64,000 nucleotides of DNA, from IMG/VR virus record IMGVR_UViG_3300034018_003010; one strand, 5' to 3'. Positions 21,238-64,000 of the stretch are shown here, piece by piece (positions within the stretch are counted from its first letter, which is position 1; each line of letters opens with the position of its first letter). Source of the stretch: a virus. The notes beneath the pieces are model-generated. The model was not told the DNA's origin. It worked only from the letters and a program-made list of their open reading frames with translations, and made no database searches. The translations under genes were made by a program, and so were the position numbers.

Positions 21238-22395
21238 ATGCAAGAAATTATTAACATAGAAGACAGAATTGATAATATAATAAAACTTATAAAAGATATG
21301 GAAAGCGCTTTTGATGAGATTCAACAGCCTAGAACAGAATATGTTTTGCAAAACTTTGTTGTTGGCCAACATGATACTATAGAAACACAATATTCGCAAT
21401 GTGTTCTAGAAATGATGGTTAAATATGATAACATTAGAAGAGCTAAGTTAAACAAGAGAAAGCTTCAAATAAAAATTAATGAATATGAATCTAAAAACAC
21501 AGAATTAGATCAAATTGAAGCAGATCTACTAAAAATAGATTTAGAAGAACAAGATCGGGCTATGCTGGGAGCATTAAGAGAATTTGAGGCTTTGTATAAA
21601 ATTTGGCAAGCATTTCCAAAAAAATACACTAGAGAAGAGCTTGATTCAAATCAACCAATTTATTGGGCAAAAAGGCTGCAAAGACAAGCTTATCAAGATA
21701 TTCAGGCAACTGGAAGAGTTGGGGTTGGAAACCATGAAGCTCTTAGACAAGCAGGTTTTGCTTCTGTTCCAGACAATTCGCTTGCATCAAATGTTGAAAA
21801 AAAATATCTTGAAAATGGAGATGCAAAATGTTTATTAGTAGTTGCAACAAGAGAAAAAGTAGAAAAATTACCAAACATCGAAAAACTTGATTTGCCAGCA
21901 GGTCTTCAAGTAAAAGTAACAAATGTACATAGCATGACTGTAGATGGAGCATACAACCATGCTGTAAAAATAGCACTAGAAGATAATGCTGATTTTATCC
22001 TAACAGTTGAAGATGATACTTTTCCTCCAGAAGATGGATTCGTAAAATTAATTAAAAGTTATAGAAATAGTAAAGAAAAATGTATAGTAGGTGGTTGGTA
22101 CCCAAGAAAAAACAAATCTAGACAAGGAACAGCAATAATAATTAAAGATGGATACAGAACAGATTTGCAGCCAGATGGTAATATACATGAAGTCTATAGC
22201 GTTCCTATGGGATTTACCTTGTTCCCAGTTTCATTATTTAAAGAATTAGAAAAACCATATTTTATGACTACAGATAGCCTTACTCAAGATAGCTTTATTT
22301 CACAAAAAGCAAGAGATAAAAATTACAAACTTCTTATAGATACATCTATTATGTGCAAACATCTTGATAAAGAAGCAAATATAATGTATGAATAG
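21238..22395 (+). CDS. Coiled-coil domain fused to a GT-A (GT2-like) glycosyltransferase domain
   Basis: SD gaggt; C-half AYN.AV..AL...ADFILTVEDD, GFTL, QDSF, LIDTSIMCKH, same layout as 61199..61855. Confidence 0.7.
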   Translation: MQEIINIEDRIDNIIKLIKDMESAFDEIQQPRTEYVLQNFVVGQHDTIETQYSQCVLEMMVKYDNIRRAKLNKRKLQIKINEYESKNTELDQIEADLLKIDLEEQDRAMLGALREFEALYKIWQAFPKKYTREELDSNQPIYWAKRLQRQAYQDIQATGRVGVGNHEALRQAGFASVPDNSLASNVEKKYLENGDAKCLLVVATREKVEKLPNIEKLDLPAGLQVKVTNVHSMTVDGAYNHAVKIALEDNADFILTVEDDTFPPEDGFVKLIKSYRNSKEKCIVGGWYPRKNKSRQGTAIIIKDGYRTDLQPDGNIHEVYSVPMGFTLFPVSLFKELEKPYFMTTDSLTQDSFISQKARDKNYKLLIDTSIMCKHLDKEANIMYE

Positions 22396-22533
22396 TCTCA
22401 ACTATTTTAATTAATATGGGTTTTGTTTTTTGATTCAATTTTTATAAAAAAGTACTATCTTGAACTAAATAATCTAGCCCCAATATGTTTTTAATATATT
22501 GGTGCTAGTTATTGTTTATACAAAGGCTAATAA

Positions 22534-22992
22534 ATGGCTGACTTAACTAGAATTCAAACTGCGGCTCCCATACAAATAACTGATGCAAACAGTTCTGTTG
22601 TGGCTTTAACAAATACTTTGCCATCATCAAGCGCAATAGGACTGGTAATTAGAGACGCTGCTCAAGGCCAAGCTTCAATGGCAAATAGCAGGCCGGTTGT
22701 TATAGCATCAGATCAAAAAGTTTCTAGATCAAGCCTTGTATTTGGACAATATTCAGTTACAACATCTGCAGCCGCTATTTCTTCTACATCAAAATTAATA
22801 AATGTTGCAGTTACAATAAAATCAAGCAATTCAAATACTTCAAATATATTTGTTGGAACATCTGGTGTTGTATTATCAGATGGATTTGAATTAGGGCCAG
22901 GTGAAGCAATAACTCTACCAATAGATGATGTGCAAAAAGTATATGCAATATCATCTTCTGGCACTCAATCTATTTCATATATTGGTGTTTAA
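22534..22992 (+). CDS. Putative virion structural protein
   Basis: Ser-rich beta protein (NIFVG...GFELGPGE...VYAIS); first gene of the fibre operon; TAAATA upstream. Confidence 0.65.
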   Translation: MADLTRIQTAAPIQITDANSSVVALTNTLPSSSAIGLVIRDAAQGQASMANSRPVVIASDQKVSRSSLVFGQYSVTTSAAAISSTSKLINVAVTIKSSNSNTSNIFVGTSGVVLSDGFELGPGEAITLPIDDVQKVYAISSSGTQSISYIGV

Positions 22993-22994
22993 AA

Positions 22995-24797
22995 ATGATT
23001 AATGGACAGCCTAATTTTAACCCTGGACTTACAAAAGCAAGAGCAGATCAGCTTTATTTGCCCAAAATATCTGGTTCTATAACAAGTGGATATTTAGGAA
23101 ATAGTTCAGTTCTTTCTGGAAGTATAGGCTCTGGACAAATTGGAGGATTTCACCTTTTAAGTGGATTAATACAGCCTGGAACAGGCGTTTCGATAATAGT
23201 AGATGCAAACAATAATTATGAAATATCTGCTACTGGCGGCGGATCAGTTACATCTGGATCTATAGTAAGTGGATTAATTGGAAATGAAGCCGTTGTTTCT
23301 GGAAGCATTGCATCTGGTCAAATTGGTTATATTCATTTAAATTCTGGATTTGTTTATACCACCGATCTTACAGTCAGCTTGTCATCTGGAAAAACATTTG
23401 GAAGATATATAAACGGCGAAACAATACCATCATCTGGCAAAACTCCAGTTGATGTTATACAAATGGCTATAGCAGAGCCAAAATCTCCAGATGTATTTGT
23501 ATCAGGATCTCCAATTTCGTATCTTTATGGTTTATCTTCATTTGCAAATACAATTTCTTATCAAGCAGTAATAAACACCATTGGGGCTTCTTCTAAAACT
23601 GCTTCAGTAGAATATCGCAAAAATAACACCGGAAGCTGGTCAATATTATATTCTGGCGCTATTTATTCTGGAAGCGTTCTTCATAGCGGAACAAAACTAA
23701 TAACAGATTCAGAACCATTTAATTACAGATATACATTTGTAGATTCTTCTAATATGTCTGGGCAGGCAACTGCAAATATCACAGTATCACAGCCCGCATC
23801 TCCAACTGTAAATTTAACAAGAAGCCCAACTTCTTATCTTTATGGAGCAACAAGTATAAGTAATACACTAACATATTCTGCTACAGTTAATACAAATGGA
23901 GCTTCAGGATATTTAGCAGTTCTTGAATTTAGAAGAGGCGGCGCTGGAGCATGGACATCGCTTTATAGTGGAAGCATATGGTCTGGATCATATCTTCATA
24001 CTGATACAAATACTTTTGGAAACACTTCAACATACGATTATCAATATACTTTCATAGATTCTGCAAATATGTCTGGAAGAGCTTCTGCAAGTGTTTCTTT
24101 TGGATCTTACACAGCACCATCGATAACACTCTATATCTCTGGAAGTACTATTACATCTCCAGAAACTAATTCTTTAAGAGAAATAGGCAATTATTCATCA
24201 AAACTTGGCGGCACTATTGCGAGAAACTCTTCTCTTGTAAACATGCAAACTTATCAATTGCAATTTAATTACAGTGGCTCCTCATGGATTAACATTGGCT
24301 CTTCAACAAATATTTCTGGCTCTTCTACTGTTAACTTCGGTCCAATAACACATAGCGATTCAGTTCTTTCTGGCGTTTCGACTGTAAATTACAGAGTTGC
24401 AGTTACAGATCAACAGCAAACAACTAATGGGACTACAAGTACTGTCAATTTCCTCAATATGATATGGTATGGACCTTCATCTTCTATAACTTCTGGAACA
24501 GCTACTAGTGCAAATATTAGGTCTTTATCAAACAGAATATTTACAAGTGGCTCTAATCCATTTACACTAAACACAGGAACTACAGATGATAATTTTGCAA
24601 TAGCTATGCCATCTGGCAAAACAATAACATCTGTAATTGATACAACAGCTTTGAACACAAATATTACAACGGCATATCTAAACAATCAAATTGATGTAAG
24701 CAACGCTGGGGGTAATCCTGTAAACTACAATGTATATATTTTAGATAATGCTACACCATATACAGAAAACCACGAACATGTAGTAACAAGGAATTAG
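22995..24797 (+). CDS. Fibre-like protein with Ser-Gly repeats and two Ig-like repeats
   Basis: SGSIASGQIG repeats; duplicated SYLYG...W..LYSG.I.SGS.LH...YTF.DS.NMSG.A module. Confidence 0.75.
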   Translation: MINGQPNFNPGLTKARADQLYLPKISGSITSGYLGNSSVLSGSIGSGQIGGFHLLSGLIQPGTGVSIIVDANNNYEISATGGGSVTSGSIVSGLIGNEAVVSGSIASGQIGYIHLNSGFVYTTDLTVSLSSGKTFGRYINGETIPSSGKTPVDVIQMAIAEPKSPDVFVSGSPISYLYGLSSFANTISYQAVINTIGASSKTASVEYRKNNTGSWSILYSGAIYSGSVLHSGTKLITDSEPFNYRYTFVDSSNMSGQATANITVSQPASPTVNLTRSPTSYLYGATSISNTLTYSATVNTNGASGYLAVLEFRRGGAGAWTSLYSGSIWSGSYLHTDTNTFGNTSTYDYQYTFIDSANMSGRASASVSFGSYTAPSITLYISGSTITSPETNSLREIGNYSSKLGGTIARNSSLVNMQTYQLQFNYSGSSWINIGSSTNISGSSTVNFGPITHSDSVLSGVSTVNYRVAVTDQQQTTNGTTSTVNFLNMIWYGPSSSITSGTATSANIRSLSNRIFTSGSNPFTLNTGTTDDNFAIAMPSGKTITSVIDTTALNTNITTAYLNNQIDVSNAGGNPVNYNVYILDNATPYTENHEHVVTRN

Positions 24798-24805
24798 GAT
24801 AAAAA

Positions 24806-27307
24806 ATGCCATTAACACCAGGATTACAAATACCGTTTGGAATTCAGCCAGTACAAGCAGTCCCTGTTGATTCGTGGTCTGGTCCTTATACTGGGGCTGA
24901 TTTGGCAACAGCAATAGCTGCCGCAAATTCTGCAATACCATCTGGCATCAGGTTTCAATCTATGGAAGTTCGCCTTATTGTTGGCGGAACTTCATACAAG
25001 TATTGGTATAAAAACGGAACCACAGACAGCGATTTAGTTGAATTTTCTGGAGGCGGTGTATCTTCAGGTTCGTTTTCATTAACTTCGGGAATTATTACAA
25101 GCGGATATATTGGCAATTTTGCAGTAGTTTCTGGAAGCATCGCTTCTGGAACAATTGGAACATTCCACATATCACAAAGTGCAATTAACAGCGGACAGAT
25201 CAATTCTGGAGCAGTATCTTATGGCAATATCGCTTCCGGCGCAGTAACCAGCGGAATGCTAGGAAACGAATCTGTCGTTAGCGGAACAATTGCTTCTGGT
25301 GTAATTAATCTGAATATGCTGGCATCTGGAGCCGTTTTTTCCGAAAGAACTTTAGAACAATTAAATACTGGTTTGTTATTTGGCGGTGCCTTAACTTTCA
25401 ATTCTGGAGCCTCTACATTTAACATTGGCTCTGGCACCGGAATGATATTAGTTCCTAGAGGAAACTCTTCTGGCGATCCACAATTAACATATGTTCAATG
25501 GAATCAAATTACCAATCAAACGCCAATATATTCTGGAAGTATAACATATATTTCTATTAATTCAGGCGGCGCTGTAGTAAAACAAAACGATCCATTTACA
25601 TTAAATGAATTTTTACAAGAAATTGTTTTGGGATATGTTGTTCATTTAAGCGGAACAATTATAAACAACATACATACACATCCAAGCGTTGGATATGCTG
25701 GTATTTCTCAACTTAATACATTTGCTAGAGTTTTTGGCAGTGTAAAAGTCGAAGGGCTTAATCTTTTTGCAAATGGAGCAAATCTTCAAGTAAACAGAGA
25801 AGCTGGAACTTCGTTTTCATTTGGTGGAAATTATAATTTAAACCCAAACAGCCCAAGTGTAATAACAGACTCCCAAAAAACAACAGTAAATTTTAATTAT
25901 GTTTATAGATCTGCAACACCGGGCAAATTTACTTTTGCAACTCCTGTAACAAATCTTTCTCCCGACTATTATGATGATGGAACTGGAACATTAAATCCAA
26001 TAGGTGGCGGGCAATACACAATACAAAGAGTCTTTTTTGTTCCAAACGATACAAATAATGTTTATATTTACTATGGTAGAGCAACCTATACAAGCACAGC
26101 TCTAGCAGCCCAAAACATATTTGTAGAATCATTTAGTGAAGACGGATTTACCACCAATGCTGCTGTGTTTATTGGTTATATTATTGCAAAAGGTAATGCA
26201 TCAGCATTAAATGACTCGGCACAATGCTTGTTTATTCAAGCTGGTCAATTTAGAAATACAGCAGGTGGCGGCGGTGGCGTAACAGGACAAACAATAAATG
26301 ATTTAACTGATGTTAATGCCGCAACTGCTGTAAACAACCAATTTTTGATGTATGAAGCTGGAATGTGGGTAAACAGTTATGTTACTGCAAACAGCATGGC
26401 ATCGGGATCTGTAACTTCCGGTTCAATCGCTTCTGGAAGTGTTGGGCAATACGCAATAGCATCTGGCTCAATCACAGCAGATCACATCGCATCTGGCGCA
26501 GTAATTAGTGCTGATGTTGCAGACAATGCTGTTATAAGTGGCAAGGTAGCATCTGGTGTAATTGCTTGGTTCAATCTTGCAAGTGGATTTATAACATCTG
26601 GATTAATTACAAGTGGAATGCTTGGAAATGATTCTGTTATTTCTGGTAGTATAGCTAGCGGACAGATTGGCATAAATCATTTAAGCTCTGGGCTTTTAAA
26701 TTCTGTAGCATTTACAATTAACAATGAAAGCGATAACAGAATTTTAACAAGCTTGGCTTCTGGCTCAAAACAAGCAGATGCAGAATCCAATCTGACATAT
26801 GATGGAACAACTTTAAATATTCAATCCACAGCAAGCGGATCTACTGTATTCAGCGTAGATGGAATCTCTGGAAATTTGTTTTCTATCAATGACACTCCTT
26901 ATGGAAACAATATTTTAAGTGTTGAAAACTTAAGTGGTAATTTAATATTTGCAATTAATACAGAAGGATATCAAAAAACAGTATCTTGTCTTGCTTCCGG
27001 TCAAACATCTAATGTAGGAATTTTTTCAGTTAATAAAACCGATGGAAATGCAGCATTTTTTGATTATTATTGCAAAAATACTTTATCTTATTCTTCTAGG
27101 GCAGGTAGTATTTCTGTAGTTTGGGATGAATCAAACGATATTATTGATTATACAGAAACTTCAACAAATGATATTAATGGTTCTACTGAACATTTATATT
27201 TTTCAACAACAATAGAAACAACTGGCACATATAGTGGCAAAATGGTCTTGTCAGCAAACATAAGTAGCGGTTCATGGAATATTAAAGCTGGCGCAAGAAT
27301 AGTTTAA
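24806..27307 (+). CDS. Fibre-like protein, Ser-Gly repeat family
   Basis: IASG repeats; central domain paralogous to 44193..51887; C-domain paralogous to 27439..29694. Confidence 0.8.
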   Translation: MPLTPGLQIPFGIQPVQAVPVDSWSGPYTGADLATAIAAANSAIPSGIRFQSMEVRLIVGGTSYKYWYKNGTTDSDLVEFSGGGVSSGSFSLTSGIITSGYIGNFAVVSGSIASGTIGTFHISQSAINSGQINSGAVSYGNIASGAVTSGMLGNESVVSGTIASGVINLNMLASGAVFSERTLEQLNTGLLFGGALTFNSGASTFNIGSGTGMILVPRGNSSGDPQLTYVQWNQITNQTPIYSGSITYISINSGGAVVKQNDPFTLNEFLQEIVLGYVVHLSGTIINNIHTHPSVGYAGISQLNTFARVFGSVKVEGLNLFANGANLQVNREAGTSFSFGGNYNLNPNSPSVITDSQKTTVNFNYVYRSATPGKFTFATPVTNLSPDYYDDGTGTLNPIGGGQYTIQRVFFVPNDTNNVYIYYGRATYTSTALAAQNIFVESFSEDGFTTNAAVFIGYIIAKGNASALNDSAQCLFIQAGQFRNTAGGGGGVTGQTINDLTDVNAATAVNNQFLMYEAGMWVNSYVTANSMASGSVTSGSIASGSVGQYAIASGSITADHIASGAVISADVADNAVISGKVASGVIAWFNLASGFITSGLITSGMLGNDSVISGSIASGQIGINHLSSGLLNSVAFTINNESDNRILTSLASGSKQADAESNLTYDGTTLNIQSTASGSTVFSVDGISGNLFSINDTPYGNNILSVENLSGNLIFAINTEGYQKTVSCLASGQTSNVGIFSVNKTDGNAAFFDYYCKNTLSYSSRAGSISVVWDESNDIIDYTETSTNDINGSTEHLYFSTTIETTGTYSGKMVLSANISSGSWNIKAGARIV

Positions 27308-27438
27308 TTTATATAATATTTTATATATATTATATTTTTCAATACCAAATATATTTTAGTTTATAAAAAAAAACATATATAGAAGTAGTAGGGGGAAAGT
27401 GCGAACTGATTTAAATTCTTTCAACATGAGGGAGAAAC

Positions 27439-29694
27439 ATGGCACATGAATTAATTGTTAAATGGGGTCTTAATGTAACTAGCGGAGAAATAAAAGGTGT
27501 TCTCGCTAGTGGCATAGTAGTCTCTGGAAGCATTGCTTCCGGTCAAATTGGAGTAAATCATTTAGCTTCTGGTGTTCTAGATTCTGTGACACCAAAATCT
27601 GGCAGTATTGTCAGCGGAATGCTTGGCGATAATTCTGTATTATCTGGAAGCATTGCTTCTGGACAAATCGGTCTAAATCATTTAGCTAGCGGCGTTGCCG
27701 ATGGCTTTACAATTACATCTGGCGAAATCGTTAGTGGACTTATTGGTGACGGCGCAGTCAACACCAATAACATTGCTTCTGGCGCAGTAAGCAGCGAAAA
27801 GCTAGCTGATGGCTCTGTTCTAACAGCAGCTATTGCTTCTGGACAAGTAACTTCAGAAAAGCTAGCCGATGGTTCTGTTCTTTCTGGAGCAGTTGCTTCT
27901 GGACAAATCGGTATAGATCATCTAGCTTCTGGAGTTCTTGACTCTGTAACTCCAAAATCTGGAAGCATTGTCAGCGGAATGCTTGGTGACGGCGCAGTTG
28001 TTTCTGGAAGCATCGCTTCTGGTCAAATTGGTGCTGATCATATTGCATCTGGCGTAATTTCAAATATTCACATGTCATCTGGAGCAGTTACAAGTGGATA
28101 CATTGGTGACGGCGCAGTCAACACCAACAATATTGCTTCTGGTCAAGTAACATCAGAAAAGCTAGCTGACGGCTCTGTATTGACAGCAGCTATTGCTTCT
28201 GGTCAAGTAACATCAGAAAAGCTAGCTGATGGCTCTGTTCTTTCTGGAAGCATTGCTTCCGGTCAAATTGGTGCCGATCATCTTGCTTCTGGTGTAATGT
28301 TTGTATTACAGTCTGGTGCTATCGTAAGTGGATACATTGGTGATGGCGCAGTCAACACAAATAACATTGCTTCTGGTGCAGTAAGCAGCGAAAAGCTAGC
28401 TGACGGCTCTGTTCTAACAGCAGCTATTGCTTCTGGTCAAGTAACATCAGAAAAGCTAGCTGATGGCTCTGTTCTTTCTGGAGCAGTTGCTTCTGGTCAA
28501 ATTGGTGCCGATCATCTTGCTTCTGGTGTAATGTTTGTATTGCAGTCTGGCGCTATCATAAGTGGATACATTGGCGACGGTGCTGTTAACACCAACAACA
28601 TTGCTTCTGGCGCAGTAAGCAGCGAAAAACTAGCTGATGGCTCTGTTCTAACAGCAGCCATTGCTTCTGGGCAAGTAACATCAGAAAAGCTAGCTGATGG
28701 TTCTGTTCTTTCTGGAGCAGTTGCTTCTGGTCAGATTGGCGCATACCACTTAGCTTCTGGTGTGATGTTCACACTAAGCTCTGGGATTGTTACAAGCGGT
28801 CATCTTGATGACGGCTCTGTAAACACCAACAACATTGCTTCTGGCGCAGTAAGCAGCGAAAAACTAGCTGATGGCTCTGTATTGACAGCAGCTATTGCTT
28901 CTGGTCAAGTAACTTCAGAAAAGCTAGCCGATGGCTCTGTTCTTTCTGGAGCAGTTGCTTCTGGTCAAATTGGCGAATACCACTTAGCTTCTGGTGTGAT
29001 GTTCACACTAAGCTCTGGCTCTATTGTTAGCGGATACATTGGCGATGCAGCAGTTGTTTCTGGAAGCATTGCTTCTGGTTCTATCGATGCCATTCACATG
29101 GTATCTGGCACATTGTTCAATGTTGTAGACGCATCTGCTGGCAGAATCCTAACAAGCTTGGCTTCTGGAGCAAATGGTGCTACAGCCGAAACCAACTTGA
29201 CCTATCAATCTGGAACACTAACTGCCGCATCTGTTGGAAGTGGCACCACAGTATTCTCAGTAACAGGACAAAGCGGAACTCTATTCTCTGTAACAGATAC
29301 AGTTTCCGATCAGGTCTTAACTGTCAATGACAACGCTGCAAACCCTGTGCTCATTGTAAGCACAGACAGCTATGTCAAGATTCTATCCGGCGTTCACACC
29401 GGAAAGACAGCAGACGATGTGGTGTTCAGCGTTGCTGACACAGCAGGTCAGGGTGGTATCTTTGATTACTGCGTAACTGAATCTGGTGGCGCTCGCAGAG
29501 TAGGAACAATCATGGCTGTATGGAACGCCGGTTCCGACACCGTTGATTACACCGAAACATCAACAAATGATCTCGGTGGCTCAACAGATGGAATCTACTT
29601 TGAAGCAGCCGTAACATCCAACAATTTTGAGTTGACTGCGAAGATCGCAACTGGAACTTGGGACATTAAGTTGTCCGCAAGACTCCTCAGCTAG
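27439..29694 (+). CDS. Fibre-like protein with five VNTNNIASG..SEKLADG repeat units
   Basis: SD gggag; 234-bp period (28261 vs 28495); C-terminal FDY...DYTETSTND.GGST domain; own terminator. Confidence 0.85.
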   Translation: MAHELIVKWGLNVTSGEIKGVLASGIVVSGSIASGQIGVNHLASGVLDSVTPKSGSIVSGMLGDNSVLSGSIASGQIGLNHLASGVADGFTITSGEIVSGLIGDGAVNTNNIASGAVSSEKLADGSVLTAAIASGQVTSEKLADGSVLSGAVASGQIGIDHLASGVLDSVTPKSGSIVSGMLGDGAVVSGSIASGQIGADHIASGVISNIHMSSGAVTSGYIGDGAVNTNNIASGQVTSEKLADGSVLTAAIASGQVTSEKLADGSVLSGSIASGQIGADHLASGVMFVLQSGAIVSGYIGDGAVNTNNIASGAVSSEKLADGSVLTAAIASGQVTSEKLADGSVLSGAVASGQIGADHLASGVMFVLQSGAIISGYIGDGAVNTNNIASGAVSSEKLADGSVLTAAIASGQVTSEKLADGSVLSGAVASGQIGAYHLASGVMFTLSSGIVTSGHLDDGSVNTNNIASGAVSSEKLADGSVLTAAIASGQVTSEKLADGSVLSGAVASGQIGEYHLASGVMFTLSSGSIVSGYIGDAAVVSGSIASGSIDAIHMVSGTLFNVVDASAGRILTSLASGANGATAETNLTYQSGTLTAASVGSGTTVFSVTGQSGTLFSVTDTVSDQVLTVNDNAANPVLIVSTDSYVKILSGVHTGKTADDVVFSVADTAGQGGIFDYCVTESGGARRVGTIMAVWNAGSDTVDYTETSTNDLGGSTDGIYFEAAVTSNNFELTAKIATGTWDIKLSARLLS

Positions 29695-29717
29695 TACTGA
29701 TTTTATGTTCAACACAG

Positions 29718-29749
29718 GAACCCCAGCCAATTGGCTGGGGTTCTTTTTT
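29718..29749 (+). terminator. Intrinsic terminator
   Basis: 26-bp perfect palindrome gaaccccagccaattggctggggttc followed by T6. Confidence 0.9.
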
Positions 29750-30563: not shown

Positions 30564-30614
30564 TTTTTCCTCGGTTTAACTAATTTAAAATAGTCTACTA
30601 AAGAGGAAAAATTT

Positions 30615-35926: not shown

Positions 35927-35927
35927 G

Positions 35928-55229: not shown

Positions 55230-55888
55230 TGGGTTTGGCGCATTATCCTTCAATAGTATCAAATAGTTTGGCGCTTCTTGTAGACGCTGCCAACCGCAAA
55301 AGCTATTCTGGCTCTGGTACTAATTTATATGATATTAGTGGGAATAATAATACTGGAACGCTGGTAAATAGCGTAGGATTCAGTTCGGCAAATGGAGGAA
55401 TCCTAACATTCAATGGAAGCAATCAAAGAGTATCCACAACATTTAAGCCTAGCGGTGCAAGAAGTTATTTTATTTGGGTGAAATACAACTCTATAACAGG
55501 ATTACCGGCTGGATATAGCTTAACTGGAACACAGGAAGTAAATGCATATAATTATATTGGCATATCTGATGGTGGTTATTTTTATTATTACGCAGGCACA
55601 ACAGGGAATCAATTTAACAGTGTAGTTCTTAGCACAAATACTTGGTATCAACAAGGTTTTGTATTAAATTCTGATGGGTCGAGAACATTATATTTAAACG
55701 GCAGCGCTATCGCAACCGAAGCTGGAGGAATTGGAGTTACCTCTACATCTGAATTTTCAATTGGATGTATAAATCAAAGCCACTGGGTGAATGGGTCAAT
55801 TTCTGTTGTTACACAATACGGTCGTGCTTTAAGTTCAGCAGAAGTATTGCAAAACTTCAACGCATATAGAGGGAGGTTTGGCATATGA
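55229..55888 (+). CDS. LamG/ConA-like domain protein 2 (ATG 55229)
   Basis: DAANRKSYSGSG, YGRALS..EVLQNFNAYRGRFG; TGATG overlap. Confidence 0.85.
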   Translation: MGLAHYPSIVSNSLALLVDAANRKSYSGSGTNLYDISGNNNTGTLVNSVGFSSANGGILTFNGSNQRVSTTFKPSGARSYFIWVKYNSITGLPAGYSLTGTQEVNAYNYIGISDGGYFYYYAGTTGNQFNSVVLSTNTWYQQGFVLNSDGSRTLYLNGSAIATEAGGIGVTSTSEFSIGCINQSHWVNGSISVVTQYGRALSSAEVLQNFNAYRGRFGI

Positions 55889-56556
55889 CAGCAGCAGCAG
55901 GGCCAGATGTAGTAGAAGATGGATTAGTTTTAAGTTTAGATGCAGCAAATGGTAAAAGCTATCCGGGTAGCGGAACCACTTGGACTGACCTAAGCGGGAA
56001 TGGCAATACAGGCACTTTAACTAACGGACCTACATACAGTTCATCTAATAATGGATCTATCGTTTTTGATGGTGTAGACGATTACATAACTACATCGAAT
56101 AATCAAAATCTTTTACCTACTGCTGGTTTGTCCATTTGTGCTTGGATTAAAACTAGCGTTGCTGATAAGTGGTGTGTAGACAAAACTCCTTCCGTTGGTG
56201 GTCAGGGCTATATTTTTGCAGGTACTTCATTAAGCACTTGGGCTATGAATGTTAACAGCTCCTCAGTTCAATCTGTAAGCACATACACCTCAAACACTTG
56301 GAAGTTTATAGTTGGAACTTGGACTCCTTCTGCTAGTTTGAAGCTTTATTTTAATGGCGTTTTAGACGCTATAAACACAACCAGCATATCTGCAACTATA
56401 ACGGACCCATCCGTTGATTTATGGATAGCAAGAAGAAGAAGTGGCGGTGATTATTTTAACGGAAGTATATCTAATATTAGTATTTATTCTGTAGCCCTAA
56501 CAGACGCACAAGTTATCCAAAACTACAACGCATTAAGAGGAAGATTTGGATTATAA
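55885..56556 (+). CDS. LamG/ConA-like domain protein 3
   Basis: GLVLSLDAAN.KSYPGSGTTWTDLSG, FDGVDDY, QNYNALRGRFG; ATGA overlap. Confidence 0.88.
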   Translation: MTAAAGPDVVEDGLVLSLDAANGKSYPGSGTTWTDLSGNGNTGTLTNGPTYSSSNNGSIVFDGVDDYITTSNNQNLLPTAGLSICAWIKTSVADKWCVDKTPSVGGQGYIFAGTSLSTWAMNVNSSSVQSVSTYTSNTWKFIVGTWTPSASLKLYFNGVLDAINTTSISATITDPSVDLWIARRRSGGDYFNGSISNISIYSVALTDAQVIQNYNALRGRFGL

Positions 56557-56595
56557 GATAATTATTAGAACCATAAATAAATTAAAGAGGTTAAA

Positions 56596-59500
56596 ATGCC
56601 ACAAGATATTTTGATTACACCAAATAAGGGAAGCAATAATTCGGGCGGCAAAATTGAATTCACAGGTTTGAATTCAGGTGCCGGTACTATTACTTTAAGA
56701 GTTTTAAACGATTCCGCCTTGTCATTCGAAGGGTCTGCTGGTCAGTTATTTTCAATTAATAATGTTCTAAGTAGTGGTACAATATTTTCTGTTAATGATG
56801 TTTCTGGCATTCCAAGCCTTGATATAAATTCAAGTGGTTTAATTAGACTAGCTCCATTTACTGGTGTTGTTCAAACAAACACAATGATTGTTCAGGCTAA
56901 TCCACAATCTGGCACACAGAACATGATGGAATTTAGGAATGCAAGCGGAACTGCAGTAGCCTCGGTCAATACAAGTGGCATGTTTGCTGGTTCTTTATCA
57001 TCTGGAATTGTGCTTTCAGGAAACATTGCTTCGGGACAAATTGGGGTAAACCATTTCGCTTCTGGTGCTATAAATTCAGTTGGAATTGCATCAGGACAAG
57101 TAAATTCAGGCAACATCGCTTCGGGTTCTGTTAGTCAATTTAAGCTGTCTTCTGGCTCTGTAAACTCAGGTCAAATTAATAATAATGCAGTTGTTTCTGG
57201 AAGTATAGCTTCTGGACAAATTGGTCATGCTCATCTTTCATCTGGATTAATCAATAGTGGAAAAATAGGAGATAATGCTGTTGTATCTGGCAGCATTGCT
57301 TCTGGAAGCGTTGGAAATTTCCACATCGCTTCAGGAGCAATTACAAGCGGAGACATTGGTAACTTTGCAGTAGTCAACACAAGTATTTCTAGTGGAACAA
57401 TTGCAAATGATAAGCTTATAAACAGCGCTATAACAATCGCAGGAAGCAGCACTGCTCTAGGCGGTTCTTGGTCGCCGCAAGCTTTGACAACAGGAAGTGG
57501 ATTGTTAGCTGGAACATTCTACCCAAGTGGTGCTTTAACAATCGGTATCGCTTCTGGTGGTATTACGAGTCAGTTAATTGCTGATGGAGCAATTAATTCG
57601 GGAGAAATTGCTTCTGGTCAAATTGGGTTAAACCATTTGGCAAGTGGTGTTTTAGCAAATGCAATACTTGGTTCAGGACAAGTTGTATCTGGAAACATAG
57701 CTTCTGGTCAAATTGGAACATTCCATTTGGCTAATGGAGCAGTTTTGTCTGGAGATATTGGTGCAAATGTTATTGGTTCTCCACATATTTTGGCTGGTTC
57801 TATTGCTAACGCCAGTCTTGCAACAAGTACAATAACAATTGCTGGAAGTTCTACTGCTTTGGGTGCTTCTTGGGCTGCTCAGGCTTTAACAACAGCAAGT
57901 GGATTACTAGCCGGAACATTCTACCCAAGCGGTGCATTAACAATCGGTATTGCTTCTGGTGGTATTACAAGTCAGTTAATTGCTGATGGTGCTGTGGCAT
58001 CTGGCGAAATTGCTTCAGGTCAAATTGGACTAAACCATTTAGCAAGTGGTGTTTTGGCAAATGCAATACTTGGTTCAGGACAAGTTGTATCTGGAAACAT
58101 AGCTTCTGGTCAAATTGGAACATTCCATTTGGCTAATGGAGCCGTACTTTCTGGAGATATTGGTGCTAATGTTATTGGAAGTCCTCATATTCTTGCTGGT
58201 TCTATTGCTAATGCAAGTCTTGCAACAAGTACAATTACAATAGCTGGAAGCTCTACTGCTCTTGGCGCATCTTGGGCTGCAGCAGCTTTAACTACTGCTA
58301 GTGGTTTACTAGCCGGAACATTCTACCCAAGTGGTGCATTAACAATTGGTATTGCTTCTGGTGGTGTTGCTAACCAAATGATTGCTGATGGTGCAATTAC
58401 TAGTGGCAAAATTGCAAGTGGACAAATTGGGGCAAACCACTTGGCTTCTGGTGTAATTGGAACAGTAACTTTAACATCTGGGCAGGTTGTTAGCGGAAAC
58501 ATTGGCAACAATGCTGTAAATTCTGGAAATATCGCTTCTGGAGTTATTGGAACAGGACATCTTTCTAGCGGTGCAGTAATAGGAAAAGCAAATACCGTTC
58601 CTACCACTGGAACAAACAATGCAAGTGGAATGTTTCAAATTACATTCGCAAGTGGTAATGCTGGTAATTCTTCGATGTATGTTTGCTCTGGTTTCTTTTA
58701 CAATCCAGCTATGAGAATGTTATTTATCGGATGTCCCGATAACGGAGGTACTTTTAGTGGCGGCATACACCTTTGGACTGGTTATAATTCAGGATTTATA
58801 AACAACACTTTGATAGGTCTTGGTGCTGGATTTGGTTCCGTAGACCATGAAATGTCAACTTTAATAGGAGCTGGTGCTGGGGCGAGTGGCAAAACAAAGT
58901 GGTGCGTTGGTTTAGGCGATTCTGCGCTACTTATGTGCAGTGGAAACGCAGATGTAGCCATAGGAGTTTCTTCTATGGCACAATCTGTAATTACGACATC
59001 ACAAGGACAAAATACAGCAGTAGGATATTTTTCTCTTAAAAATAGTCCTAAAGCTAATTATAATGTCGCAATTGGTACTAATTCATTAAATAACACTAAT
59101 TCTGGCTATCATGCAACTACAGCAGTGGGATTGGGTACAAAATCTTTTGGCGTTGGAATAGTTTCTGGTTCTATTTTTATTGGCACTTGGGCGATGGGAA
59201 TAGGAACTAAAAACGAAATAGTATGTGGATATCTTTCTTCTGGACACGGAGATGACACCATAACAATAGGAAATACACTTCATATTTCTGGTACAATTTT
59301 TGGAAACATAAATTTCCCATATGGAATTAGATTTCCTAGCGGTGGAGTGACATCTGGAGGTGTTTTTACAGCTTCTATTGGCTCAGGACTAATTCGAAGC
59401 GGTGCCATAGCATCAGGGCAAATTGGTGCAAATCATTTTGGTGCGGGAGCAATAACATCTGGATACTTCCTAAGAGCAGATGGAACCGGCATTCTATCTT

Positions 59501-60582
59501 GGGGAACAACTTCGGCAGCATCACTTACATCTGGGCAGGTTGTATCTGGTCTCATTGGCAACAATGCTGTAAATTCAGGAAATATAGCTTCTGGACAAAT
59601 TGGTAATTTCCATCTTGCTTCTGGTGCAGTTACTAGTGGAGATATTGGACAATTTGCCGTTTTAAATATTAATATTGTAAGTGGAACAGTAGCAAACGAT
59701 AAACTTACCAACAGTGCAATAACAATCGCTGGAAGTTCAACTGCTTTGGGCGGTTCTTGGGCTGCTCAGGCTTTAACTACAGCAAGCGGCTTGTTGGCTG
59801 GAACATTCTACCCAAGTGGTGCCTTAACCATCGGTATTGCAACGGCAGGCGTAGTAAACGCTATGATTGCTTCTGGAGCAGTAACATCTGGAAATATCGC
59901 TTCTGGAAGCATTGGAACATTCCATCTTGCTAATGGTGCGGTAGTATCTGGAGATATTGGTGCTAATATTATCGGAAGTCCACATATTCTTGCAGGAAGT
60001 ATAGCAAATGCTAGCTTGACAAATAGCTCTATAACAATTGCAGGAAGCTCTACTGCTCTTGGTGGTTCATGGGCTGCAGCGGCTTTAACTACAGCTAGTG
60101 GTTTGTTAGCAGGAACTTATGTTCCATCTGGTGCCTTAACCATCGGTATTGCAACGGCAGGCGTAGTAAACGCCATGATTGCTTCTGGAGCAGTAACATC
60201 TGGAAATATAGCTTCAGGACAGGTTGGTAATAATGCACTAACAAGCACAATTGCCGACAAGACGATTGTTGGAGATGTTCAGGCAATAAATTATCAATCT
60301 GGCGCTTATACACTTGTTTCTGGGGATGCTGGAAAGCTAATTACAATAAATAGTGTAAGTACAGCTAATTTAACAATTCCAACAAATGCAAGCGTTCCAA
60401 TGACAATAGGAACACACATTGACTTTATTCAGTTGGGAGCAGGTCAAGTTACAATTAGTGGAAATATTGGTGTAACTATAAATTATACTCCTGGAAATAA
60501 ACTTAGAACTCAGTATGCCGGTGCATCGGTTATTAAAATTGGAACCGATACTTGGTGTTTGGTTGGAGATATTTCAGCTTAA
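56596..60582 (+). CDS. 1328-aa Ser-Gly repeat fibre-like protein
   Basis: IASG repeats; five TIAGSSTALG modules; beta-roll N.A.G..S segment; C-terminal YTLV..DAGK...KLRTQY...DTW.LVGD domain; SD gaggt. Confidence 0.85.
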   Translation: MPQDILITPNKGSNNSGGKIEFTGLNSGAGTITLRVLNDSALSFEGSAGQLFSINNVLSSGTIFSVNDVSGIPSLDINSSGLIRLAPFTGVVQTNTMIVQANPQSGTQNMMEFRNASGTAVASVNTSGMFAGSLSSGIVLSGNIASGQIGVNHFASGAINSVGIASGQVNSGNIASGSVSQFKLSSGSVNSGQINNNAVVSGSIASGQIGHAHLSSGLINSGKIGDNAVVSGSIASGSVGNFHIASGAITSGDIGNFAVVNTSISSGTIANDKLINSAITIAGSSTALGGSWSPQALTTGSGLLAGTFYPSGALTIGIASGGITSQLIADGAINSGEIASGQIGLNHLASGVLANAILGSGQVVSGNIASGQIGTFHLANGAVLSGDIGANVIGSPHILAGSIANASLATSTITIAGSSTALGASWAAQALTTASGLLAGTFYPSGALTIGIASGGITSQLIADGAVASGEIASGQIGLNHLASGVLANAILGSGQVVSGNIASGQIGTFHLANGAVLSGDIGANVIGSPHILAGSIANASLATSTITIAGSSTALGASWAAAALTTASGLLAGTFYPSGALTIGIASGGVANQMIADGAITSGKIASGQIGANHLASGVIGTVTLTSGQVVSGNIGNNAVNSGNIASGVIGTGHLSSGAVIGKANTVPTTGTNNASGMFQITFASGNAGNSSMYVCSGFFYNPAMRMLFIGCPDNGGTFSGGIHLWTGYNSGFINNTLIGLGAGFGSVDHEMSTLIGAGAGASGKTKWCVGLGDSALLMCSGNADVAIGVSSMAQSVITTSQGQNTAVGYFSLKNSPKANYNVAIGTNSLNNTNSGYHATTAVGLGTKSFGVGIVSGSIFIGTWAMGIGTKNEIVCGYLSSGHGDDTITIGNTLHISGTIFGNINFPYGIRFPSGGVTSGGVFTASIGSGLIRSGAIASGQIGANHFGAGAITSGYFLRADGTGILSWGTTSAASLTSGQVVSGLIGNNAVNSGNIASGQIGNFHLASGAVTSGDIGQFAVLNINIVSGTVANDKLTNSAITIAGSSTALGGSWAAQALTTASGLLAGTFYPSGALTIGIATAGVVNAMIASGAVTSGNIASGSIGTFHLANGAVVSGDIGANIIGSPHILAGSIANASLTNSSITIAGSSTALGGSWAAAALTTASGLLAGTYVPSGALTIGIATAGVVNAMIASGAVTSGNIASGQVGNNALTSTIADKTIVGDVQAINYQSGAYTLVSGDAGKLITINSVSTANLTIPTNASVPMTIGTHIDFIQLGAGQVTISGNIGVTINYTPGNKLRTQYAGASVIKIGTDTWCLVGDISA
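57430..58370. repeat. 402-bp (134-aa) tandem duplication
   Basis: caaattgg...aaccattt..caagtggtgtt starts at 57619 and 58021. Confidence 0.85.
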
Positions 60583-60613: not shown

Positions 60614-61108
60614 ATGAGAAGAGCTTTAGCGTTTGAAAGACCAGTTATTACAACTACAACTAGTACTACGCCAGTTGTTACAACTACAACTAGTACTACG
60701 CCACCAACACCAACACCAACACCTTCCCCTTCCCCTTCCCCTTCCCCTTCACCTTCACCTTCACCTTCGCCTTCCCCTTCACCTTCGCCTTCCCCTTCAC
60801 CTTCGCCAAGTCCTTCACCTTCGCCAAGTCCTTCTCCTACTCCATGTTGGGTAGCTAGAGAAATTTATGGCGAAAACAACCCTGAATGGGTATTGTTCCG
60901 TGAATGGTTGTTTAATGATGGTCCTACTTGGTTGCAAAAGACATATACAAAATATGGAGAAAGTTTTGCGAAACTAATAAAAAGAAGAAGTGTTATTAAG
61001 GCAAGCATTAAATTCTTTATGGATATGGTTATTAAAAATTCAAATGTCAAAAATGAATATGCAGAAAATGAAGTTAAAAACTATATGTTTAAAAAAAACA
61101 ACAAATAG
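60614..61108 (+). CDS. Thr/(SP)n-rich protein with C-terminal CWVAREIYG domain
   Basis: SD gagga; TTTTSTTP x2, long (SP)n, then CWVAREIYG...W..FREWL...Y..YGE.FA. Confidence 0.75.
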   Translation: MRRALAFERPVITTTTSTTPVVTTTTSTTPPTPTPTPSPSPSPSPSPSPSPSPSPSPSPSPSPSPSPSPSPSPSPTPCWVAREIYGENNPEWVLFREWLFNDGPTWLQKTYTKYGESFAKLIKRRSVIKASIKFFMDMVIKNSNVKNEYAENEVKNYMFKKNNK

Positions 61109-61127: not shown

Positions 61128-61166
61128 AAAATAGTGTGTTTCAAAAATTTTGAAACACACTATTTT
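61128..61166. terminator. 39-bp AT-rich palindrome (terminator or operator)
   Basis: aaaatagtgtgtttcaaaa-a-ttttgaaacacactatttt, perfect 19-bp arms. Confidence 0.6.
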
Positions 61167-61198: not shown

Positions 61199-61855
61199 AT
61201 GGCAGGATCATGGGAACTAATTAAGCTAAATAGAGTTTTATGTTGTATATTGACAAGAGAAAGTGTTACAACAACTTGGGCTTTAGGATTTAAAAATCTT
61301 CAAATTCCTGGCACTTTTTGCACACTTTCTGGAATGCCTTTCGACCATGCTAGAAACACAGGATGTCAAAAACTACTTGAATTAGACTGGGAATGGTTGT
61401 TTTTCTTAGACGATGATGTCATTTGTCCTCCAGATACAATTCATAGACTAATTAAGCATCAGCAACCTATTGTTAGCGGTGTTTATAATAGAAGAAACCC
61501 TCCATTGGTTCCAGTAATGTTACGCTGGAATAAAGATAAATTTGAATGGGTTTCAGAATATGAAAAGGATAAACTAATTGAAGTTGATTTGGTTGGAGCG
61601 GGATGCTTGTTAATTCATCGTTCTGTTGTTGAATCCATGCAACCTTTGAGCAATAGATGTCGTTGGTTTGAATGGAGATGCGACAGAACAGATCTTGAAG
61701 CGGTAGAAAAGACCAGTGAAGACTTTACATTTTGTACACATGCTAAAAAGCATGGTTTTAAAATCATGGTAGACACAAGCATACATTGCCGACATATTGG
61801 ATATGCCGAAAGCAGATGTGATGGAACATTTGTACCTTTGGAGCAAAAAGCATAA
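61199..61855 (+). CDS. GT-A (GT2-like) glycosyltransferase
   Basis: DHARN, WLFFLDDD, IVSGVY, VGAGCLLIHR.V, SEDFTFC, VDTSIHC.H; SD ggag. Confidence 0.85.
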   Translation: MAGSWELIKLNRVLCCILTRESVTTTWALGFKNLQIPGTFCTLSGMPFDHARNTGCQKLLELDWEWLFFLDDDVICPPDTIHRLIKHQQPIVSGVYNRRNPPLVPVMLRWNKDKFEWVSEYEKDKLIEVDLVGAGCLLIHRSVVESMQPLSNRCRWFEWRCDRTDLEAVEKTSEDFTFCTHAKKHGFKIMVDTSIHCRHIGYAESRCDGTFVPLEQKA

Positions 61856-61857
61856 AA

Positions 61858-62889
61858 ATGAAAAATAAACTTAAAATTTGTGTTATTTCAACAACAGTAA
61901 TACCTTGTCCTCCTTCTGGATATGCTGGATTGGAAATGATTAGCTGGCAGTGTGCCAATGGTTTAAAAAATTTGGGACATGAAGTTCTTTTAATTGCCCC
62001 AAATGGATCTAAAACAGATACAGATTTGCATGAAACTACTCTAAGAGAAAGAGAAAGATATGCATATTATGGGTATAAAGACAGACTTAAAAACTATGAT
62101 GTAATTATTGATCATAGTTGGGAGAAGTGGTCTTATATTTCAAAGATGACAGAAGGCTTGAAGGTGCCTATTTTGGGTGTTCTTCATGCTCCTGTTCATA
62201 CTATGTACAACGAGTCTCCTCCTGTAGAAAAGCCGTGTTTTATTACAATTAGCAACGATCAAGGAGAAGGTTGTAAAGAACATTTAAAGTCAGAATTCAG
62301 AACAGTCTATAACGGTGTTGATGTTGATTTTTACACAAATAAAAACAAGAAAAGAAACGACAGATATCTTTTTCTAGCAAGAATTAGCACAATTAAAGGT
62401 CCTCATATTGCTTGCAATGTGGCGTTATCTGCAAAGGCTAAGCTAGATGTGGTTGGCGATGACACCCTAACAGGCGAACCATCTTTGGTTGAAGAAGTAA
62501 AGAGGGCTTGCAATCAATATCCTAATCTTAGGTATGTTGGTCCCCAAAGTAGGGAAGAGTGTGTTCAATGGTTTAATAAGAACAAGACTCTTCTACATCC
62601 AAACGAGCAGTTTAGAGAGCCTTTTGGATTGGCTCCAGTAGAGGCGCAACTTTGTGGAATGCCTGTTATTGCTTGGGATAATGGTGCAATGAGAGAAACT
62701 GTAAAGGTTGGCGAGACTGGTTTCTTAGTTAAAACACAACAAGAGATGTTAAGTCTTGTTAAAGAAGATGCAACGGCAAATTTAAAAGCCAGTCGATGCC
62801 GAGAATGGGCAAGTCAGTTCTCTTATCAAAACATGGTTAATCGCTATGAAGAAGTTTGTTTTGAAGCTATTGAAACAGGGGGTTGGTAA
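61858..62889 (+). CDS. GT4 glycosyltransferase
   Basis: PP.GYAG.E, GHEV, VYNGVD, RIS..KG, EPFGLAPVEAQLCGMPVI. Confidence 0.9.
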   Translation: MKNKLKICVISTTVIPCPPSGYAGLEMISWQCANGLKNLGHEVLLIAPNGSKTDTDLHETTLRERERYAYYGYKDRLKNYDVIIDHSWEKWSYISKMTEGLKVPILGVLHAPVHTMYNESPPVEKPCFITISNDQGEGCKEHLKSEFRTVYNGVDVDFYTNKNKKRNDRYLFLARISTIKGPHIACNVALSAKAKLDVVGDDTLTGEPSLVEEVKRACNQYPNLRYVGPQSREECVQWFNKNKTLLHPNEQFREPFGLAPVEAQLCGMPVIAWDNGAMRETVKVGETGFLVKTQQEMLSLVKEDATANLKASRCREWASQFSYQNMVNRYEEVCFEAIETGGW

Positions 62890-63903
62890 GTGCAGGCATA
62901 TTTTACTTGTGATAGAATAGGCGCAGAAACAGGCGGTGGAATTGTTACATTCCACGAATATAATGCTTTGAAAGAAATGGGAGAATTAAAACTATTCAAC
63001 CCAAATCCAACTGCAAATCCTTTTGAATCTGATGAGCTAACTGCAAAAGAAGACTTTTCAAATATAAAGTTAGCGCATTTTTATTCGGGTACTTTTTCAG
63101 AAACTATAAAAAAATTAAAGGACCAAGGAACAAAAGTTGTTTATACAGCCGCTGCACATGATCCAGATTTAAGCAGGCAAGAATTTGAAGCTTTAGGAAT
63201 CCCCTATGATCTTCCACATATGACAGATAAAAATTTATTTAATAAGTATATAGAAGGATATCTTTTAGCAGACTTGGTTATATGCCCTTCAAATCATAGT
63301 AAATCCATAATGGAAAAGTTTGGATGCAAAAATGTAGCTGTTATTCCTCATGGAATACATTCACAGAAAAATAAAATAAAGCCAAAGCCAAAAACTTTTG
63401 TCGTCGGATATTTAGGACAAATAGGACCAGATAAAGGCTTGAGATATTTAATAGAAGCGTGGGCAAAGTTAAATTATAAAGACGCAGTGTTATATTTTGC
63501 TGGTGCTCAATCTCCTGATTTAATACATCTTATAAGATACTTTAAAAAAGGCAATTACAATATATTAGGATGGGTAAATAATATTGCAGATTTTTACAAC
63601 TCGATAAGTGTTTATGTTCAGCCAAGCGTAACAGAAGGATTTGGAATCGAAGTTTTGGAAGCCATGTCATATGGAAGACCAGTTATATGTTCAAATGGTG
63701 CTGGATCTTCTGATTGTGTAAATAAATGTGGAATTGTAGTTCCAAAAAGATCTTCTGATATGTTGGCTTATGCCATAGAAAAATATAAAAACAATGAAAT
63801 TCCTTCTGAAGATGATTGTATTTCAAATTCACAATTATATTCATGGGAAATAATTAGACAACAATATAAAAAGGCGTGGGATTCTTTGCTGGGGGTCCAA
63901 TAA
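62890..63903 (+). CDS. GT4 glycosyltransferase (GTG start)
   Basis: VIPHGI, GQIGPDKGL, PSVTEGFGIEVLEAMSYGRPVI. Confidence 0.9.
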   Translation: MQAYFTCDRIGAETGGGIVTFHEYNALKEMGELKLFNPNPTANPFESDELTAKEDFSNIKLAHFYSGTFSETIKKLKDQGTKVVYTAAAHDPDLSRQEFEALGIPYDLPHMTDKNLFNKYIEGYLLADLVICPSNHSKSIMEKFGCKNVAVIPHGIHSQKNKIKPKPKTFVVGYLGQIGPDKGLRYLIEAWAKLNYKDAVLYFAGAQSPDLIHLIRYFKKGNYNILGWVNNIADFYNSISVYVQPSVTEGFGIEVLEAMSYGRPVICSNGAGSSDCVNKCGIVVPKRSSDMLAYAIEKYKNNEIPSEDDCISNSQLYSWEIIRQQYKKAWDSLLGVQ

Positions 63904-63904
63904 T

Positions 63905-64000
63905 ATGAGTTATACCTTACCATTTGTAGGAAATGTTCTTGAGCTTGGCGGAGGAACACAACCTGTTTTTAGACCGAATCTTGATGTAAGAGCGGCAGAA
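63905..64000 (+). CDS. Probable SAM-dependent methyltransferase, truncated by the window end (not in ORF track)
   Basis: ATG 1 nt after the previous stop; MSYTLPFVGNVLELGGGTQPVFRPNLDVR has a motif-I-like VLELGGG. Confidence 0.55.
   Translation, partial: MSYTLPFVGNVLELGGGTQPVFRPNLDVRAAE

Follow-up and report, generated by a model that had tools for sequence, protein, structure and literature searches.

The stretch analysed here is a 64,000-nucleotide window (the window below) from the IMG/VR virus record IMGVR_UViG_3300034018_003010. Between positions 21238 and 64000 it carries a set of glycosyltransferases, together with a sulfotransferase, a methyltransferase and a 2-oxoglutarate (2OG) oxygenase-like protein, that lie among and beside fibre genes (Table 1). 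At the centre of this set stand two paralogous enzymes in which a TPR domain is joined to a catalytic domain of GT9 fold, and relatives of these enzymes are accompanied in many other phages by genes for RCC1 propeller proteins. Tail-fibre PHROG matches, a match of one window protein to a 595-kb uncultured phage, the IMG/VR viral contigs that carry the nearest relatives of the window enzymes, and DNA near-identical to the window in lake-water metagenomes from several studies led us to regard the window as belonging to a large freshwater phage. The window is densely coding and AT-rich (about 30-44% GC). Neither a capsid nor a terminase gene lies within it, no tRNA genes were found in it, and a Megablast comparison of 24 kb of the window against phage records returned no match.

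The two central enzymes were characterized primarily through the AlphaFold 2 (AF2) model of the 37077-38438 product (pLDDT 94.8), in which ten TPR-type helices are followed by a GT-B domain. VIA comparison of the catalytic half with GT9 structures gave Z 18.0 for WaaF (1psw, root-mean-square deviation (rmsd) 2.9 over 235 residues), 17.4 for a Veillonella GT9 protein (3tov), 16.7 for WaaC (2h1h) and 15.9 for TibC, with unrelated GT-B proteins forming the next tier at about 12. On the evidence of this model, the catalytic half clearly belongs with GT9. A whole-chain Foldseek search ranked XcOGT, SPY and OGT first (E 7e-7) but with a TM of about 0.3, and VIA comparison with these GT41 enzymes (OGT/SPY) gave Z of about 11 at an rmsd of 18; only the TPR plus GT-B architecture is clearly common to the two groups. 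All 45 sequences compared carry the Asp of the GIGDE motif. As judged from the alignment start only (model residue 199 corresponding to WaaC residue 1), this residue, D211, falls at about position 13, comparable to Asp13 of WaaC and Asp110 of TibC. Residues 1-176 of the model are all-helical TPR, so that a TibC-type N-terminal beta-barrel is lacking. The iron finger of four Cys defined for TibC (PMC4358343) was likewise not seen, as one alignment column is more than half Cys (67%) and no Cys is invariant. At E 1e-30 or better, the GT9 domain family numbers 9,569 cluster representatives. The strongest members (P0078, P0080 and P0098) are proteins of 1400-3100 residues built of three to six alternating TPR-GT9 modules, and they pass the Pfam GT9 threshold. 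A predicted complex of the TPR-GT9 enzyme with the first RCC1 propeller scored 0.00, a result that weighs neither way.

An alignment-based scan of viral contigs recovered 173 relatives of the TPR-GT9 enzyme, and 80 loci were analysed; a scan with a single protein as the query had found no relatives. The core module, present on at least 173 viral contigs, consists of the TPR-GT9 enzyme, the small methyltransferase, the sulfotransferase, the 2OG oxygenase and a Cys-rich CxxCxxCC protein. Among the 80 loci, homologues near TPR-GT9 were found for the sulfotransferase in 64, RCC1 in 56, the methyltransferase in 51, the 2OG oxygenase in 38 and the CxxCxxCC protein in 23. The usual order, all on the same strand, begins with a large protein having a gp7-like baseplate/tail-fibre end and runs through RCC1, a tail-fibre protein of PHROG 10508, RCC1, the 2OG oxygenase (which typically sits between RCC1 genes) and a further RCC1 gene. 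The sulfotransferase, the CxxCxxCC protein, the methyltransferase and TPR-GT9 then follow, often with overlapping stops and starts. Downstream of TPR-GT9 lie variable transferases and a NodU/NolO-like carbamoyltransferase or an epimerase, with a tail sheath gene close by. By its gene order, the module resides in myovirus tail-fibre/baseplate operons. The tail-fibre protein of about 210 residues in these loci has no conserved stretch. Two cultured cyanophages are among the carriers. In the cyanomyovirus S-SRM01 the module block adjoins an annotated tail fibre, and in BUCT-ZZ01, a phage of Synechococcus elongatus PCC 7942, an RCC1 protein is followed by a methyltransferase-GT9 fusion (L002:8272-9996). 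Many loci also carry, after TPR-GT9, a 955-residue fusion of a glycosyltransferase, a methyltransferase and a GT2 domain (L062:11149-14016).

To evaluate the association with RCC1, GT9 domains were clustered at 60% identity, yielding 22 clusters with the Bdellovibrionales loci included. Of the 22 clusters, 20 have an RCC1 gene in the flank, and for 18 of them it lies no more than 3 kb away. RCC1 matches occur in just 7 of 50,697 phage records, and the four above 40% identity are the same four that hold TPR-GT9. Among prokaryote genomes, too, the GT9 gene adjoins a large RCC1 protein, mostly on Bdellovibrionales contigs of metagenome-assembled genomes (MAGs) with ordinary cellular neighbours. 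From the flanked clusters and the co-occurrence with close RCC1 matches in phage records, we conclude that the constant partner of TPR-GT9 is the RCC1 propeller and not the Ser-Gly fibre. In the phage RCC1 alignment each blade keeps a (K/R)SSPVQT motif with a near-invariant Ser-Ser-Pro; the motif may be structural, yet it would also present seven evenly spaced hydroxyl pairs per propeller. In the window's own RCC1 protein, SxDxGxxW motifs of BNR/Asp-box-like type occur in both the N-terminal and the C-terminal domain, and the C-terminal tip is rich in Cys. This protein, which also has mucin-like linkers, is the best candidate substrate.

Further evidence for a common function comes from contigs of the L011 type, in which eight of the window enzymes (TPR-GT9, the sulfotransferase, both GT25, both GT4, and the 61199-like and 21238-like proteins) stand side by side within some 11 kb and are 54-70% identical to the window copies. 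In the window the same eight are found in three separate places. This co-inheritance despite rearrangement suggests that the dispersed window enzymes form a single pathway. The interleaving of enzymes with fibre genes, which an earlier note on this DNA had described, is not peculiar to the window: many unrelated phages show the physical link, and the set behaves as if inherited together. Within the cassette, the trio formed by 61199 and the two GT4 genes (61199-63903) is again contiguous (54-66% identity), the 21238 homologue (58% identical) stands at the end, and GT25 homologues come after the sulfotransferase gene in L011 as in L003 and L007. Beside the contiguous cassette stand giant collagen-like proteins (L011:1509-6632 and L013:3-5879) with 26-29% Gly, 18-24% Gln and long G-x-Q runs, the longest reaching 207 residues. 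GT25 is also the family of the animal collagen galactosyltransferases. Given these collagen-like neighbours and the rarity of mucin-like tracts (found in L003), the module appears to accompany several kinds of fibre, RCC1 propellers most faithfully. A contig of 135,617 bp assigned to an Acidimicrobiaceae MAG (L084, CAYVOK010000005.1) is colinear with window genes 27439-44193 at 73-96% protein identity and is probably a mis-binned phage contig.

Analysis of the remaining enzymes largely confirmed the inventory of the earlier note. Of its ten glycosyltransferase-like genes in 21238-64000, eight are firm and two (21238 and 61199) fall below the Pfam cutoff. Both weak members have 58-66% identical homologues inside the contiguous L011 cassette, and residues 20-170 of the 21238 product match PHROG 1409. 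The TPR fusion proposed for the GT2 gene at 29748 was not detected. The sulfotransferase, WecB and epimerase assignments were all confirmed by family matches, although the epimerase scores 163.8 bits against TIGR02197 (ADP-heptose 6-epimerase), under the cutoff of 274.6; this is nevertheless its best family by far, GalE being next at E 3e-23. The proposed 2OG-Fe(II)-like gene at 30615 is supported by its fold and by an H75-x-E77...H152 triad that is invariant across homologues, and every top Foldseek match is a 2OG oxygenase, with TM only 0.4-0.5. Three methyltransferase-like genes had been proposed, of which the one at 39884-40429 was recovered and the other two were not found. The 31811 protein has eight invariant Cys, and an Atlas comparison gave a lead to PF03692, a family that includes the flagellin lysine methylase FliB. 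The sulfotransferase family profile has protein-tyrosine sulfotransferases as its closest solved relatives (TPST1, E 1e-11). The motifs that bind 3'-phosphoadenosine-5'-phosphosulfate (PAPS) align between the two, with GLPRSGsTLL matching GVPRSGTTLM in the 5'-phosphosulfate-binding (5'-PSB) loop and vRD...S in the 3'-phosphate-binding (3'-PB) motif, and R13, R112 and S120 are invariant. No conserved Glu was found at the place aligned with the TPST catalytic Glu that follows the 5'-PSB loop, a place where the alignment is weak. The sulfate acceptor may be a sugar or a protein. Pfam, NCBIfam and PHROG searches assigned no family to genes 31283, 32825, 20109 and 20660, and PDB searches by profile or single sequence returned nothing for 30615, 31811, 21238 and 32825.

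The earlier note had counted at least 11 structural-type genes among the enzymes, and we find twelve fibre-type genes (22534, 22995, 24806, 27439, 41397, 44193, 51928, 54543, 55226, 55885, 56596 and 60614), five of which match tail-fibre PHROGs and four of which have LamG domains. Their products contain 19-28% Ser plus Thr and 2-20% Gly. By reading of the sequence, protein 27439 is made of SGxIASGQI-type repeats. The 41397 product combines LamG and Gly-rich domains, 44193, 51928 and 56596 encode giant repeat fibres, and 54543-56556 encodes three LamG proteins. Long poly-Thr/SP/AP tracts amount to approximately 1150 residues in the window and lie in 3-305, 4602-9842, 9885-13373 and 60614-61108, with a short one in 13425-15494. 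The tracts reported earlier for 21238-64000 are thus real for 60614-61108, the remaining long ones being outside that range. No export signal is in sight for these mucin-like Thr/Ser/Pro tracts. The N-termini of 9885-13373 and 13425-15494 share PHROG 13135.

Table 1 Enzyme, fibre and candidate partner genes of the window, with the evidence for each assignment
Feature	Position	Strand	Evidence
Two paralogous TPR + GT9-fold glycosyltransferases	37077-38438 and 38431-39882	-	TPR by Pfam; GT9 by fold
Free-standing TPR-like fragment	36715-37080	-	weak DUF7017 match; phmmer matches TPR ends of TPR-GT9 proteins
Protein of 1746 residues with a pair of seven-bladed RCC1 propellers, BNR-like domains at its ends and mucin-like linkers totalling 344 residues	4602-9842	-	PF25390, 418 bits
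Protein of 1162 residues, 576 in poly-Thr/SP mucin-like tracts	9885-13373	-	sequence, tract scan
Sulfotransferase	35928-36722	-	PF13469/PF00685
Small class I S-adenosylmethionine (SAM) methyltransferase	39884-40429	-	NIGSG motif; PDB methyltransferase 3dli, E 6e-5
2OG/Fe(II)-oxygenase-fold protein, DUF6445-like	30615-31193	+	AF2 pLDDT 91; double-stranded beta-helix
Cys-rich CxxCxxCC-type metal-binding protein	31811-32266	+	eight invariant Cys; lead to PF03692
Two GT25 glycosyltransferases	34548-35315 and 35243-35926	-	PF01755
Two GT4 glycosyltransferases	61858-62889 and 62890-63903	+	Pfam
GT2 glycosyltransferase	29748-30563	-	PF13704, 27.8 bits; PHROG 13126 'beta-1,4-glycosyltransferase', E 5e-35
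GT32-type DXD glycosyltransferase	32263-32916	+	PF04488, 33.9 bits
Weak GT-A-like protein, N-terminal domain of uncharacterised type	21238-22395	+	GT2, 19.9 bits against 23.3 cutoff
Weak GT-A-like gene	61199-61855	+	GT2, 19.8 bits; PHROG 'glycosyltransferase', E 5e-6
WecB, UDP-GlcNAc 2-epimerase	33487-34551	+	TIGR00236, 351.4 bits against 210.15 cutoff
Short-chain dehydrogenase/reductase (SDR) NAD-dependent sugar epimerase, HldD-like	40476-41372	+	PF01370; best NCBIfam heptose_epim
Four fibre-type genes (22534, 22995, 24806, 27439)	22534-29694	+	tail-fibre PHROGs 892, 28766, 16641
Seven fibre/adhesin genes	41397-60582	+	Pfam LamG and ALK Gly-rich domain; tail-fibre PHROGs
Small protein with Thr/Ser-Pro mucin-like tract	60614-61108	+	sequence, tract scan

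Outside these genes, the window encodes at 1984-4284 (+) a subtilisin-family S8 protease (Pfam Peptidase_S8) split by an intein (Intein_splicing) that carries a LAGLIDADG homing endonuclease (LAGLIDADG_3), and at 17185-18003 (-) a highly acidic protein of 272 residues, 21% Glu and 10% Asp, that matched no family. The 3' ends of a phiEco32-type COOH-NH2 ligase gene (15507-16430, +) and a Prim-Pol primase-polymerase gene (16393-17130, -) overlap. The candidate late-promoter motif TATAAATA occurs 8 times, where 8.6 occurrences are expected; sites resembling sigma-70 promoters or terminators are likewise at chance frequency. Two strong hairpins were noted. One, at 29716-29745, has a 13-bp stem with 8 GC pairs and separates the convergent genes 27439 and 29748; the other, at 61133-61161 (12-bp stem), comes after gene 60614-61108. 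Both hairpins are likely terminators separating enzyme genes from fibre genes.

Taken at a probability of roughly 0.55, our preferred interpretation is that the region encodes a wholly cytoplasmic pathway by which the phage decorates its own fibre and adhesin proteins before assembly. In the proposed mechanism, the TPR domains of both GT9 transferases would dock on a fibre protein, the best candidates being the RCC1 and mucin-like giants of 4602-13373. The GT9 domain would then move a first sugar onto a hydroxyl with the invariant GIGDE Asp as the base; this sugar is possibly a heptose, as hinted by the HldD-like epimerase. The GT25, GT4, GT2, GT32 and GT-A enzymes would lengthen the glycan, drawing on nucleotide sugars of the host and on UDP-ManNAc made by WecB. 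The sulfotransferase and the small methyltransferase could cap the glycan or modify the protein directly, and the 2OG oxygenase could hydroxylate the protein. The earlier view that TPR-fused glycosyltransferases indicate protein substrates agrees with these data, as soluble enzymes with a TPR-fused GT9 domain look protein-directed. The proposed fibre O-glycosylation system is supported as far as soluble, apparently protein-directed and fibre-linked enzymes are concerned; Ser-Gly fibres as its substrates are not supported, nor are mucin-like tracts as a regular neighbour of the module.

Several observations weigh against the decoration of fibre proteins. Modification of virion proteins is here a prediction from genes. 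Neither window TPR-GT9 protein reaches Pfam PF01075 (GT9), a family that their distant homologues and multi-domain relatives do pass. In the window, 27 kb separate the GT9 genes from the RCC1 gene, which lies outside 21238-64000, and the central enzyme block lies on the strand opposite to the fibre genes. The epimerase, besides missing the HldD cutoff, has a homologue in only 8 of 80 loci. Mucin-like tracts stand beside the module in 1 of 80 loci, that of the closest relative L003, and thus seem specific to the lineage of the window phage. In all, 48 phage records contain the SGxIASGQI-type repeat that builds 27439 and the giant fibres; podoviruses and siphoviruses of 38-47 kb are among them, and one carrier checked gene by gene, Geobacillus PK3.6, has no annotated glycosyltransferase. 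The earlier note had named repeat proteins kept without the glycosyltransferase cassette as an arrangement that would speak against it, and PK3.6 has this arrangement for the Ser-Gly repeat. As small phages carry the repeat, one of them with no annotated glycosyltransferase, it is best regarded as a general fibre building block rather than a sequon, and the Ser-Gly fibres are neighbours of the enzymes, putative substrates at most. Tail-fibre regions, moreover, are hypervariable islands that gather unrelated accessory genes, and GT9, GT25, GT4 and HldD are classic families of lipopolysaccharide (LPS) or lipooligosaccharide (LOS) core synthesis whose members are likewise soluble or peripheral.

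This last point introduces the main alternative, which we judge improbable but the strongest of those considered: that the enzymes remodel the host envelope during infection, acting on the LPS/LOS core or another surface glycoconjugate assembled at the inner membrane face, possibly to block superinfection or keep progeny from sticking to debris. Families of core-oligosaccharide and enterobacterial common antigen (ECA) synthesis (GT9 as in WaaC/WaaF, GT25 of LgtB type, GT4 of WaaG type, HldD), WecB among them, make up much of the enzyme set, and the best structural matches of the GT9 domain are to core enzymes. PHROGs tag related genes as 'moron/auxiliary metabolic gene', and the central block is transcribed against the fibre-gene direction. 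The earlier note had argued from the lack of a flippase against LPS or capsule conversion. In the window none was indeed found: Pfam searches of its proteins matched no flippase, polymerase or initiating phosphoglycosyltransferase family, and no hydrophobic 19-residue stretch reaches a Kyte-Doolittle (KD) value of 1.8 in any of the 48 proteins, leaving no transmembrane segment. Work on the LPS core would still be compatible with this result, because core transferases are soluble or peripheral and require no flippase of their own. Against an envelope target, the GT9 domain bears a protein-binding TPR domain and travels with RCC1 even in Bdellovibrionales chromosomes, away from LPS genes. Most phage loci hold GT9 in a same-strand run with tail-fibre genes, and no lipid-linked step and no Kdo or lipid A enzyme is found nearby. 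The TPR fusion, the RCC1 linkage and the operon context therefore weigh against LPS-core synthesis, though not decisively.

Less probable again is that the core marks proteins directly by tyrosine sulfation, hydroxylation and methylation of the RCC1 propellers, with glycosylation as one independent mark and the extra glycosyltransferases as a separate add-on. The TPST-like profile and aligned PAPS motifs of the sulfotransferase are consistent with such a role, as are the resemblance of the oxygenase model to the protein hydroxylases NO66, MINA53 and P4H and the presumed link of the CxxCxxCC domain to FliB. The TPST catalytic Glu, however, is not evidently conserved, the fold matches are generic, and related loci add glycan-tailoring enzymes that point to decorated sugars, namely the NodU/NolO-like carbamoyltransferase and, in S-SRM01, a NodZ-like fucosyltransferase (PMC8557907). 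Least likely of all is a mosaic of unrelated accessory genes with different targets (DNA bases, small molecules or host proteins) collected in a hypervariable fibre region. In its favour, gene order differs among the window, L003 and L011, the promoter scans yielded nothing that ties the genes together, and the COOH-NH2 ligase is of a family that has been associated with hypermodified DNA bases. Against it, two lineages share eight of the enzymes as an inherited set in spite of rearrangement, and core gene order is kept over many divergent loci. DNA glycosylation is unlikely, since our searches showed no window enzyme to resemble the phage DNA glucosyltransferases already known.

The decoration of fibre proteins can be compared with several known systems. 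To our knowledge, phage virion glycosylation has been demonstrated solely for mycobacteriophages, with one or two transferases, and virus-made glycocalyces are known in giant viruses of eukaryotes, with no phage example that we know of. The mycobacteriophage system (Freeman et al. 2023, as cited in PMC12619734) resembles the present one in that phage-encoded soluble transferases modify the phage's own structural proteins. It differs in that its transferases act on capsid and tail-tube C-termini, as shown by mass spectrometry, whereas the window phage has, near fibre and RCC1 genes, some ten transferases together with predicted enzymes for adding sulfate, methyl and hydroxyl groups. TibC and AAH, which modify the adhesins TibA and AIDA-I (PMC4358343), share with the window enzymes a GT9-type GT-B fold, a probably equivalent Asp at the start of the catalytic domain, solubility, and the pairing of the enzyme gene with that of its presumed substrate; the window enzymes, too, would act in the cytoplasm on a repetitive adhesin. 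Unlike TibC, the phage enzyme has a TPR domain in place of the N-terminal beta-barrel, lacks the iron finger, shows no sign of a dodecamer and is phage-borne; it pairs with an RCC1 propeller where TibC pairs with a beta-helix autotransporter, and heptose is a candidate donor sugar. FlmG of Caulobacter, whose TPR binds flagellin (PMC7591256), and the GT41 enzymes OGT and SPY likewise combine an N-terminal TPR with a C-terminal GT-B domain in a soluble, cytoplasmic enzyme acting before export or assembly. The phage catalytic domain, however, is nearer GT9 than GT41 (Z 18 against about 11, the latter at a very large rmsd), and phage fibres are its partners. Our literature search found no paper joining RCC1, GT9 and sulfotransferase in phages; the 'RCC1' strings in PMC12906663 are culture-collection numbers and were rejected.

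Phage virion glycosylation, TPR-GT-B protein transferases and GT9-type adhesin heptosylation are thus known already. From its sequence, the RCC1-GT9 multi-enzyme set of the window phage is a real gene system, unusually large, whose function is predicted. In a fuller version of the same interpretation, which we put forward tentatively and consider rather doubtful, the phage would lay a glycocalyx of sulfated and methylated hetero-oligosaccharide, primed by TPR-GT9 in the host cytoplasm, on RCC1 propellers and about 1000 residues of mucin-like poly-Thr linkers, by means of an RCC1-GT9 system common to Bdellovibrio-like predators. If the decoration of fibre proteins is correct, these enzymes would be a source of soluble transferases that put sugar, sulfate or methyl groups on proteins and whose partner proteins are defined. 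As the core is carried by S-SRM01 and BUCT-ZZ01, directly testable systems are at hand. A conserved multi-enzyme kit accompanying RCC1 fibres would further point to a widespread and unstudied chemistry of host recognition, shielding or stability in aquatic phages.

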